The position numbers and the translations under genes were made by a program. The notes under the pieces were generated by a model that saw only the letters and a program-made list of their open reading frames with translations, ran no database searches and had not been told where the DNA came from. Below, piece after piece: positions 38,221-39,328 of a stretch of 64,000 nucleotides of DNA (within the stretch, counting starts at the first letter, position 1; the number at the start of each line of letters is the position of its first letter). Source of the stretch: an uncultured Parachlamydiaceae bacterium. GTDB taxonomy: Bacteria; Chlamydiota; Chlamydiia; Chlamydiales; Parachlamydiaceae. The stretch is taken from positions 864,001 to 928,000 of the forward strand of contig CAVULX010000004.1 of the NCBI GenBank assembly GCA_963742415.1. The letters run 5' to 3'.

Positions 38221-39328
38221 AATTTTAAAGATCAAGGAACAGGATATGCAAGATCGCAAGCGGCATGATAGGCAAGATAATAAAGGATTATATACAGAAT
38301 TAACTGAAACTATTTTAGGGATTTGTTTTGATACAATGAATGAACTTGGTTCAGGTTTTCTTGAAACGGTTTATAAAAATGCACTGTTCGTTGCCATAAA
38401 AGAAAAAGGTCTTAAAATCGAAGCTGAAAAAAGATTCGAAGTCTTTTTTAAAGGAAAAAAAATCGGCTTATATATTGCAGACCTTGTCGTCGAAAATGCT
38501 GTAATCATCGAATTAAAATGTTGTGAATCATTGCTTGGCGAACATCAAGCTCAATTAATTAATTATCTTAAAGCATCCGGTGTTTTTGTTGGCTTGCTGG
38601 TCAATTTTGGAAAAAGAAAAATAGAATACAAACGCCTTCATCATCCTGATTATCCTGCCGCTTGCGATCCTACATATCCTGTTCACTGATGTTTAAAAAT
38701 TATCGGGCTTATCCAAGGAACAGGATATGCAGGATCGCAAGCGGCAGGATAGGCAAGATAATAAAGGATTATATACAGAACTAACTGAAACTATTTTGGG
38801 ATTTGTTTTGATGAACTTGGTTTAGGTTTGCTTGAAATGCCTTCACCATCCTGCTTATCCTGCCGCTTGCGATCCTACATATTCTGTTCACTGATGTTTA
38901 AAAATTATCGGGCTTATCCAAGGAACAGGATATGCAGGATCGCAAGCGGCAGGATAGGCAGGATAAAAAACGATCATATACAGAACTAACTGAAACTATT
39001 TTGGGATTTGTTTTGATGAACTTGGTTTAGGTTTGCTTGAAATGCCTTCACCATCCTGCTTATCCTGCCGCTTGCGATCCTACATATCCTGTTCACTGAT
39101 GTTTAAAAATTATCGGGCTTATCCAAGGAACAGGATATGCAGGATCGCAAGCGGCAGGATAGGCAAGATAATAAAGGATTATATACAGAACTAACTGAAA
39201 CTATTTTGGGATTTGTTTTGATGAACTTGGTTCAGATTTGCTTGAAATGCCTTCACCATCCTGCTTATCCTGCCGCTTGCGATCCTGCATATCCTGTTCC
39301 TTGATATTTAAAAATTTATCGGGCTTAT
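38221..39328. mobile_element. Inverted-repeat-bounded GxxExxY unit (481 bp) plus three tandem 205-bp internally deleted copies
   Basis: Units start at caaggaacagg at 38233, 38714, 38919 and 39124; each has both inverted arms; the short copies retain the gene's 5' and 3' ends. Confidence 0.85.
38246..38689 (+). CDS. GxxExxY family protein (PD-(D/E)XK nuclease superfamily)
   Basis: LGSGFLETVYKNAL, ADLVVENAVIIELK, HQAQLINYLKA, GLLVNFG. Confidence 0.93.
   Translation: MQDRKRHDRQDNKGLYTELTETILGICFDTMNELGSGFLETVYKNALFVAIKEKGLKIEAEKRFEVFFKGKKIGLYIADLVVENAVIIELKCCESLLGEHQAQLINYLKASGVFVGLLVNFGKRKIEYKRLHHPDYPAACDPTYPVH

Follow-up and report, generated by a model that had tools for sequence, protein, structure and literature searches.

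What is a small nuclease gene doing between two inverted repeats that themselves hold its start and stop codons, and why do three shortened copies of it follow? The question is raised by one locus in the genome of an uncultured Parachlamydiaceae bacterium, whose assembly has 2.69 Mb in 4 contigs, with 42% G+C and an estimated completeness of 84%. We analysed the locus within a stretch of 64,000 nucleotides (nt) of contig CAVULX010000004.1 (C4:864001-928000, the window; positions without a contig prefix are window positions). The gene, at 38246..38689 on the + strand, encodes a GxxExxY protein of 147 amino acids (aa). It is the only GxxExxY gene in the whole genome, and the locus is the sole gene-bearing member of a genome-wide hairpin family. 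The 205-bp units beside it are shown by alignment to be internal-deletion derivatives of the gene-bearing element. The explanation that we prefer, with the case for it standing at about even, is a hairpin system resembling that of REPINs (hairpin-forming doublets of REP sequences, which are repetitive, extragenic and palindromic) and RAYTs (REP-associated tyrosine transposases), but built on the unrelated GxxExxY nuclease, whose single gene would serve gene-less hairpins in trans.

The gene-bearing element has its left inverted arm at 38223..38286 and its right arm at 38635..38698, both given on the + strand. The left arm contains four CAGGAT-type words (iterons) at spacings of 9, 15 and 9 nt. 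A repeat search paired it with the right arm over 64 nt at 83% complementarity, and with 39250-39313 at 88%. As the preliminary description of this DNA had noted, the open reading frame (ORF) begins in one arm and ends in the other: the ATG (38246) lies inside the left arm, as does a likely ribosome-binding site (AAGGAA), and the TGA (38687-38689) lies inside the right arm. The terminal peptides MQDRKRHDRQD and HPDYPAACDPTYPVH are accordingly encoded by the arms. In total the N-terminal 17 aa and the C-terminal 16 aa are translated arm sequence, which explains for annotation the odd QD-rich N-termini and YP-rich C-termini of GxxExxY proteins. The outermost ends of the parent with its array, atcaaggaacaggat and atcctgttccttgat, were both found as described. 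At up to 3 mismatches we counted 16 occurrences of the arm word ACAGGATAAGCAGGATCG in the window, where 0.02 would be expected. The promoter scan yielded 8 sites where 5.1 were expected, with nothing sigma-70-like on the + strand upstream of the gene, and the terminator scan, using a short-loop definition, found none. The segment between the two iteron pairs of an arm (for example 38254-38262 in the window, C4:1273518 and C3:841002) is a small self-complementary unit, CGCAAGCG, CGTAAACG or CGCCTTCGGCG; in loci L016, L032 and L039 of relatives, extra nested hairpins sit inside this arm-centre segment.

The 147-aa ORF matched the PF13366 PDDEXK_3 profile (E 7.4e-38, 130 bits, cut-off 22) and the NCBIfam model TIGR04256 'GxxExxY protein' (129.8 bits, cut-off 35), so its proposed membership of the PD-(D/E)XK superfamily is upheld. 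An alignment of 47 proteins, the window's own among them, shows no variation at the signature residues E40, D79, E89 and K91, and the PD-(D/E)XK nuclease that the gene encodes is apparently intact. An EHQAQLINYL block is also invariant in this alignment, partly as a sampling artefact. The AlphaFold2 model (pLDDT 89.2, pTM 0.81) has the restriction-endonuclease-like fold, with the arm-encoded termini as its low-confidence parts. Its nearest folds by Foldseek are Cas4 SSO0001 (E 3.7e-5, TM 0.50), lambda/LHK exonucleases and RecB-type nuclease domains, with archaeal Hjc lower. A search of the PDB by sequence gave a best hit of only E 0.42 and found no solved relative. The predicted fold is that of a DNA nuclease, and it does not specify the substrate. 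In a survey of the PD-(D/E)XK superfamily (PMC3424549), the entry for PDDEXK_3 (PF13366) lists the function as 'Unknown' and notes multiple transfers between divisions. Our literature search found no paper linking GxxExxY/PDDEXK_3 proteins to repeats or describing such a gene-repeat pairing.

The three units behind the gene were confirmed by Tandem Repeats Finder (period 205, 3.4 copies, 95% matches, 38630-39329) and by the spacing of the repeats: unit starts are 38233 for the parent, then 38714, 38919 and 39124, at spacings of 481, 205 and 205. Alignment shows each 205-bp unit as the 481-bp parent minus 1, 9 and 266 bp, and the 266-bp deletion is bounded by AAACG on both borders (38364-38368 and 38630-38634). 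The preliminary description was right on both points. At the junction all minis read GAAATGCC, with a C-to-T change. The minis occupy 38714..38893 (mini 1, a 180-nt hairpin), 38919..39098 (mini 2) and 39124..39305 (mini 3) on the + strand. The deletions sum to 276 nt, or 92 codons. Because the frame is lost in between, and in minis 1 and 2 a TAG interrupts what remains of it, the minis are not under coding selection. Mini 3 keeps an open frame of 55 codons (39137-39304), with the same 276-nt deletion sum and without the TAG, most likely by chance. It is also the most perfect hairpin of the array, and the left outer end of the parent finds its best complement in the right end of mini 3. As single-stranded DNA this mini forms an uninterrupted stem of 42 bp, at -56.1 kcal/mol (z -12.7), and none of 200 shuffles was as good.

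The array itself records how it grew. Each unit ends in the 22-nt sequence TTTAAAAATTATCGGGCTTATC, present as spacer copies at 38692..38713, 38897..38918 and 39102..39123. A fourth copy at 39308..39329 (all + strand), 91% identical, is native DNA adjoining atpC, which encodes the F1 epsilon subunit (39325..39768, - strand) and has its 3' end towards the array. The last 5 nt of this native flank are inside the atpC ORF and include its stop codon, so the spacers are duplicates of host flank; spacer copy 1 includes a copy of the atpC stop codon. Since the repeat unit is element plus host flank, the array is explained by tandem duplication or unequal exchange and not by three insertions: it grew in place by tandem duplication of the element with 22 nt of host flank. 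The suggestion that the three local units are products of transposition is therefore withdrawn. An origin through ATC microhomology at the boundaries of the duplications was rejected, as the junction CTTATC|CAAGG is one base longer than such an event would give.

A fourth mini lies at C4:715839-715984, 186 kb from the gene and between two co-directional genes. Its loop matches the GxxE-motif region of the gene at 27 of 27 nt, and its junction CTTGAAA|TGCCTTCA is the same as in the tandem minis, the C-to-T change included; a further 35-nt deletion is present. At three positions that are changed in the tandem minis it retains the parental base, and it therefore branched off before the tandem minis diverged. 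One deletion derivative has thus come to occupy a second site, by either of two possible routes: copying of a transposition-like kind, or gene conversion between arms already present.

A 46-nt arm query (blastn-short, E <=0.1) gave 175 matches in the genome, or 168 after removal of overlaps. These make up 70 inverted pairs of convergent arms, and 28 arms have no partner. The smallest element measures 114 nt and the largest 565 nt, and the mode is about 162 nt. When 53 of the 70 elements (those of 140-200 nt) were aligned, the arms were conserved as AACAGGAT-AAG-CAxGAT-CGTAAACGG-CAGGAT-AAG-CAGGAT. The arms, about 42 nt long, are arrays of the CAGGAT word at a 9-nt phase. The loops belong to a handful of families that are unrelated to one another and occur in both orientations. 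Two gene-less hairpins of the family, recognised by arm match, are in the window itself at 4851..5017 (C4:868851-869017) and 7622..7770 (C4:871622-871770). The preliminary description had tied the arms to the gene. A dispersed hairpin family indeed exists, and it is clearly not the case that the arms occur nowhere else and lack any association with GxxExxY genes; the arms are not private to the locus but genome-wide. The idea of a gene-bearing hairpin with gene-less derivatives stands for the three minis and the copy at C4:715839-715984, which share the junction. It finds no support in the other gene-less hairpins, most of which have a loop without relation to the gene. The arms are what is common to the remaining paired hairpins (66 of the 70 pairs).

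Most pairs are intergenic, mainly at gene 3' ends. Outside ORFs of at least 120 aa we found 60 of the 70 elements, against 8% of 5000 random windows, and the flanking genes converge on 28 of the elements, run in the same direction around 36 and diverge around 6. At least 90% of the length was covered by another element in 62 of the 70. Among the 20 pairs listed at >=94% identity, 15 had unrelated outer flanks; the other five were tandem, local or segmental duplicates. A left arm is 95.6% complementary to the right arm of the same element, compared with 89.8% to right arms of other elements. In the covariation test (65 elements, 500 partner shuffles), compensated non-consensus positions numbered 114 against a mean of 30.8 and a maximum of 50 in the shuffles, and co-inheritance within subfamilies contributes to this figure. 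The three forms that one position takes symmetrically, CAGGAT, CAAGAT and CATGAT, nevertheless point to either selection for pairing or copying of one arm from the other.

The repeats of this genome are modular mosaics. One hairpin subfamily extends into further inverted modules, CTCCTAAGTAACTAGG and CACAGAGAAG (flanks for example at C2:191534, C3:561002 and C4:578504), and other elements are flanked by short words of GAGATCA/CACAGAG type, with ends that are not sharp. We considered the outer module CTAAGTAACTAGGCACAGAG as a pre-existing 'empty' hairpin target; a CAGGAT arm follows it in 14 of 14 copies, so the module belongs to one subfamily and is no target. A second pair of long parent and short derivative, with the same arms and other content, is formed by C4:41392-41922 and C4:45919-46067: the former has a 439-nt loop with an AT-rich stretch and a small membrane-like ORF, and the latter retains the loop ends only.

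GxxExxY loci of other bacteria carry the same arrangement. Of 185 matched stretches, 106 encoded a relative, and we retained the best 80, whose sources are Chlamydiota, Geobacteraceae, Acidobacteriota, Armatimonadota, Chloroflexota, Betaproteobacteria, Verrucomicrobiota, Wenzhouxiangella and others. In the 74 loci where the flanks were long enough, we took the best ungapped inverted repeat between both gene ends with a threshold score of >=16, and as controls 389 window pairs displaced by 1.2-2.4 kb at the same loci. Inverted repeats bracketed 54 of the 74 genes but only 1 of the 389 controls (median scores 23.5 and 8). Most of these arms share the CAGGAT word as well. In 70 loci, + strand CAGGAT was counted 18, 29, 41 and 15 times in the 25-nt bins from -50 to +25 at the gene start, and ATCCTG 30, 39, 16 and 28 times in the bins at the gene end, against a background of about 0-5 per bin in both cases. 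At least two words stood on each side in 37 of these 70 loci, and the spacing of successive words was exactly 9 nt in 82 of 177. Some lineages have variants of the word, such as GCGGAT/GCAGAT in Wenzhouxiangella and CACAGAG in genome G029. Extra arm copies were located within 3 kb of the gene in 23 of the 80 loci, so a gene with adjacent mini hairpins is a recurrent architecture; tandem arrays of gene-less units were seen in L020, L047, L059, L070, L074 and L076.

We also compared 31 related genomes, the own genome counted in, by their number of CAGGATN3CAGGAT matches (the reversed pattern, as control, gave 0-4 per strand). Five or more matches were present in 14 of the 31, and a GxxExxY match accompanied them in 13 of these 14, that is, in all but G015, a genome of 79% completeness. 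The 11 genomes without a GxxExxY match had 1, 0, 0, 5, 0, 0, 0, 0, 0, 0 and 2 pattern matches. Seven genomes had a GxxExxY match but few pattern matches; three of them held gene fragments only, and G006 and G029 evidently use words other than CAGGAT. As kin are not independent, this co-occurrence counts as supporting evidence only. G029, which belongs to the same order, has 67 GxxExxY matches, and about 40 of them are one truncated 3' half (model positions 65-115) with CACAGAG-type arms, located in an IS5-like unit. Their number seems to be due to riding on the insertion sequence, and the full-length copies (98% identical) also abut the end of an IS5-like transposase. We had considered these matches as mass dispersal of a truncated derivative; because they ride in the IS5-like repeat unit, they are not evidence of cassette mobility.

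How could such a system work? We infer that the nuclease drives the spread of the hairpins. The GxxExxY protein would recognise the CAGGAT iterons in duplex DNA, or else in an extruded hairpin or cruciform, and would cut there; the element would next be copied or converted into new sites by the replication or repair of the host. The single gene would act on gene-less hairpins in trans, as a RAYT does on REPINs, and the hairpins may also serve the host as mRNA 3'-end stabilisers or terminators. In a wider form, which we put forward only tentatively, GxxExxY nucleases would be the enzymes of a pan-bacterial and so far undescribed class of hairpin elements, the small PD-(D/E)XK protein would recognise iterons at a 9-nt phase in a hairpin or cruciform and would, with the help of host repair, copy gene-bearing and gene-less hairpins around genomes, and the present locus would display the birth of a non-autonomous derivative from an autonomous parent, followed by local amplification and a first jump to another site.

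The closest known system is REPIN/RAYT, in which REP doublets form hairpins and the enzymes are REP-associated tyrosine transposases (Bertels & Rainey 2011, PMC3116915). RAYTs are typically single-copy (PMC5581495), and a GTAG or CGTC tag is described at the REP end (PMC3733652). In both systems a single-copy gene lies between inverted copies of a repeat that is also found many times without the gene, and the gene-less units are inverted hairpin doublets, extragenic and dispersed, with some tandem clusters. However, the boxed gene here encodes a PD-(D/E)XK nuclease (PF13366) and not an HUH/Y1 transposase (PF01797). The arms are arrays of about 42-64 nt built from a 6-nt word at a 9-nt phase, whereas REPs are palindromes of 20-40 nt, and the arm ends read (A)ACAGGAT, with no conserved GTAG or CGTC there. 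Unlike in REPIN/RAYT, a direct line of deletion leads here from the gene-bearing form to the gene-less one, and a bona fide RAYT with its own repeats resides in the same genome. The analogy to RAYT-REPIN with a different nuclease, as first suggested, thus holds for the layout (a single gene, 70 dispersed pairs and bracketing across phyla) but not for the local units, which are tandem duplicates.

Other comparisons are partial. Like miniature inverted-repeat transposable elements (MITEs), short non-coding internal-deletion derivatives keep both terminal inverted repeats and outnumber the parent, and this relation was found for the three minis and the copy at C4:715839-715984; the other gene-less hairpins, with loops that bear no relation to the gene, do not show it. 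Unlike MITEs, the element has no recognised transposase, DDE or other, its flanks gave no target-site duplication, its ends are not sharp, and its arms are iteron arrays forming a near-perfect long hairpin. Free-standing homing endonuclease genes of the PD-(D/E)XK superfamily offer another model, in which a small nuclease gene behaves as selfish DNA and spreads through host repair after a cut. The likeness lies in a small nuclease of the same superfamily whose spread would rely on host repair after the cut; the difference lies in the boxing by iteron hairpins and the family of gene-less derivatives found here, as we know of no homing endonuclease genes that are boxed in iteron hairpins or leave gene-less hairpin families.

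Several points weigh against a nuclease-driven hairpin system. The gene's own arms have the minority centre CGCAAGCGG, shared with about ten other elements, and CGTAAACGG is the centre in the majority of the gene-less copies. In most gene-less elements the loop bears no relation to the gene, with the arms alone in common, and two other long-loop elements contain other material, so the arms can box other DNA. Neither target-site duplications nor sharp ends were found in the flanks of the elements, where the palindrome often extends outward. The fourth mini could stem from gene conversion between arms instead of transposition. The 80-locus sample is skewed to one subfamily, since the search patterns included EHQAQLIN. 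Y1 transposases co-occur with repeat-rich relatives too (20 of the 31 genomes). A PD-(D/E)XK nuclease cuts DNA and does not join it, hence the spread needs host functions, and we know of no GxxExxY protein for which enzymatic activity, binding or mobility has been shown. Finally, the comparison for an empty site covered 30 related genomes that all belong to other genera, with atpC 28-43% identical.

At the locus the left neighbour is a gene for a YgaP-like membrane protein (PF11127, formerly DUF2892; 37916..38134, - strand), divergent from the GxxExxY gene, and the right neighbour is atpC. Three further genomes with the closest GxxExxY genes (atpD 75-77% identical) have atpC with no YgaP-like or CCP gene after it. 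Two of their atpC regions (3.5 kb each) are without the CAGGAT word and the third has scattered single words; synteny is lost there, so they do not represent a true empty site. A scan of metagenomes for other strains with a 28-nt word from the atpC end gave 0 matches.

A rival account, which we judge rather unlikely, is that the hairpins serve the host as mRNA 3'-end stabilisers, bidirectional terminators or host-protein binding sites and were spread by recombination, slippage and gene conversion, with the GxxExxY gene as a passenger or as a binding regulator. The placement of the elements fits it, as 60 of the 70 are intergenic and 64 have the 3' end of a gene on at least one side, and many arms end in T-rich runs (CCTGTTTTTTT / CCTGTTTCTTC). 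The arm covariation would fit selection on pairing, the local array grew by tandem duplication, and the arms box other content also. But the bracketing of one gene family by the same iteron word across phyla is hard to square with a chance passenger. Near-identical elements at unrelated loci, and the few or absent iteron pairs in genomes without a GxxExxY gene, also speak against it.

We consider it improbable that the locus is an RNA-level cassette like the intervening sequences (IVS) of 23S rRNA, where the arms would pair in the transcript, RNase III would cut, the ORF would be excised or silenced, and the gene-less hairpins would be signals for processing or decay. The model for this is the Coxiella burnetii 23S rRNA IVS, which is 428 nt long and carries S23p (PMC4990558), a small ORF in a long stem. 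The resemblance extends to the complementary ends, to the arm covariation, to the ribosome-binding site and ATG within the stem, and to the predicted RNA fold of the parent, in which the arms are paired (-129.4 kcal/mol, z -5.4); an IVS is also regarded as selfish. However, the element is outside rRNA, its ORF is PF13366 and not PF05635, and dozens of gene-less intergenic copies exist. Both 23S genes are full length (model positions 1-2925) with no arm matches; the one in the window (52791-55734, C4:916791-919734, minus strand) has neither an intervening sequence nor arm copies. No Rfam family was matched apart from sub-threshold matches to generic miRNA-precursor hairpins, and the dispersal of DNA copies and the DNA-nuclease fold would be left unexplained. 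The genome has one candidate four-helix-bundle gene (PF05635, 23S_rRNA_IVP), a 211-aa ORF at C4:30378-30590 (L092 1204-1839) with a weak match of 33.5 bits, and it is without such arms. As the PF05635 gene is not boxed by inverted repeats, we gave up the idea of arms common to both 'IVS-type' families in this genome.

Very improbable, in our view, is that the co-resident Y1 transposase mobilises the CAGGAT hairpins in trans with the GxxExxY gene as cargo. Y1 transposases of IS200/IS605 and RAYTs do act on hairpin DNA. The genome has one Y1_Tnp gene (PF01797; RAYT/IS200-type) at C4:1304441-1304755, and most of the repeat-rich relatives are among the genomes with Y1 genes. But the Y1 gene has no CAGGAT arm nearby and is boxed by its own inverted repeats of 96 nt (92% complementary; L114 1319-1414 and 1913-2008), which belong to a GC-rich family (GGCCGAAGCGAAGCGAAGGCCTGGG) with 86 blast matches genome-wide, distinct from the CAGGAT family. 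This gene with its GC-rich repeats is a canonical REPtron, and the genome therefore has two single-copy genes each boxed by its own repeat family. Among the relatives, G010 and G021 (Y1, no GxxExxY match) have 0 and 0 CAGGATN3CAGGAT matches, and G002, G007 and G023 (GxxExxY fragments only) have 1, 2 and 0, while G017 (GxxExxY, no Y1 match) has 15. The two repeat families meet at C4:1105006-1105570, where a CAGGAT-arm hairpin has a 480-nt loop containing a nested palindrome of the RAYT-associated family.

That the three tandem minis are an assembly artefact is hardly credible: tandem long hairpins are difficult to assemble, but several substitutions and one indel separate the units from one another (96-97% identity), which argues against simple assembly duplication, a related mini is present at the independent locus C4:715839-715984, and tandem arm arrays stand by GxxExxY genes in other assemblies.

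What is new from this locus is the traceable series of deletions from parent to mini, the derivative at a second site, the covariation of the arms, and the contrast with a RAYT system in the same genome. With one gene copy, a clear parent-derivative series, a perfect hairpin of 42 bp (mini 3) and the RAYT system as internal control, this genome is favourable for testing a nuclease-driven hairpin system. If that explanation is true, a large and widespread orphan protein family would gain a function. GxxExxY nucleases and their hairpins would then be a mechanistically distinct counterpart of RAYT/REPIN, and bacteria would have a second, independent solution in which a single gene is joined with dispersed hairpins.

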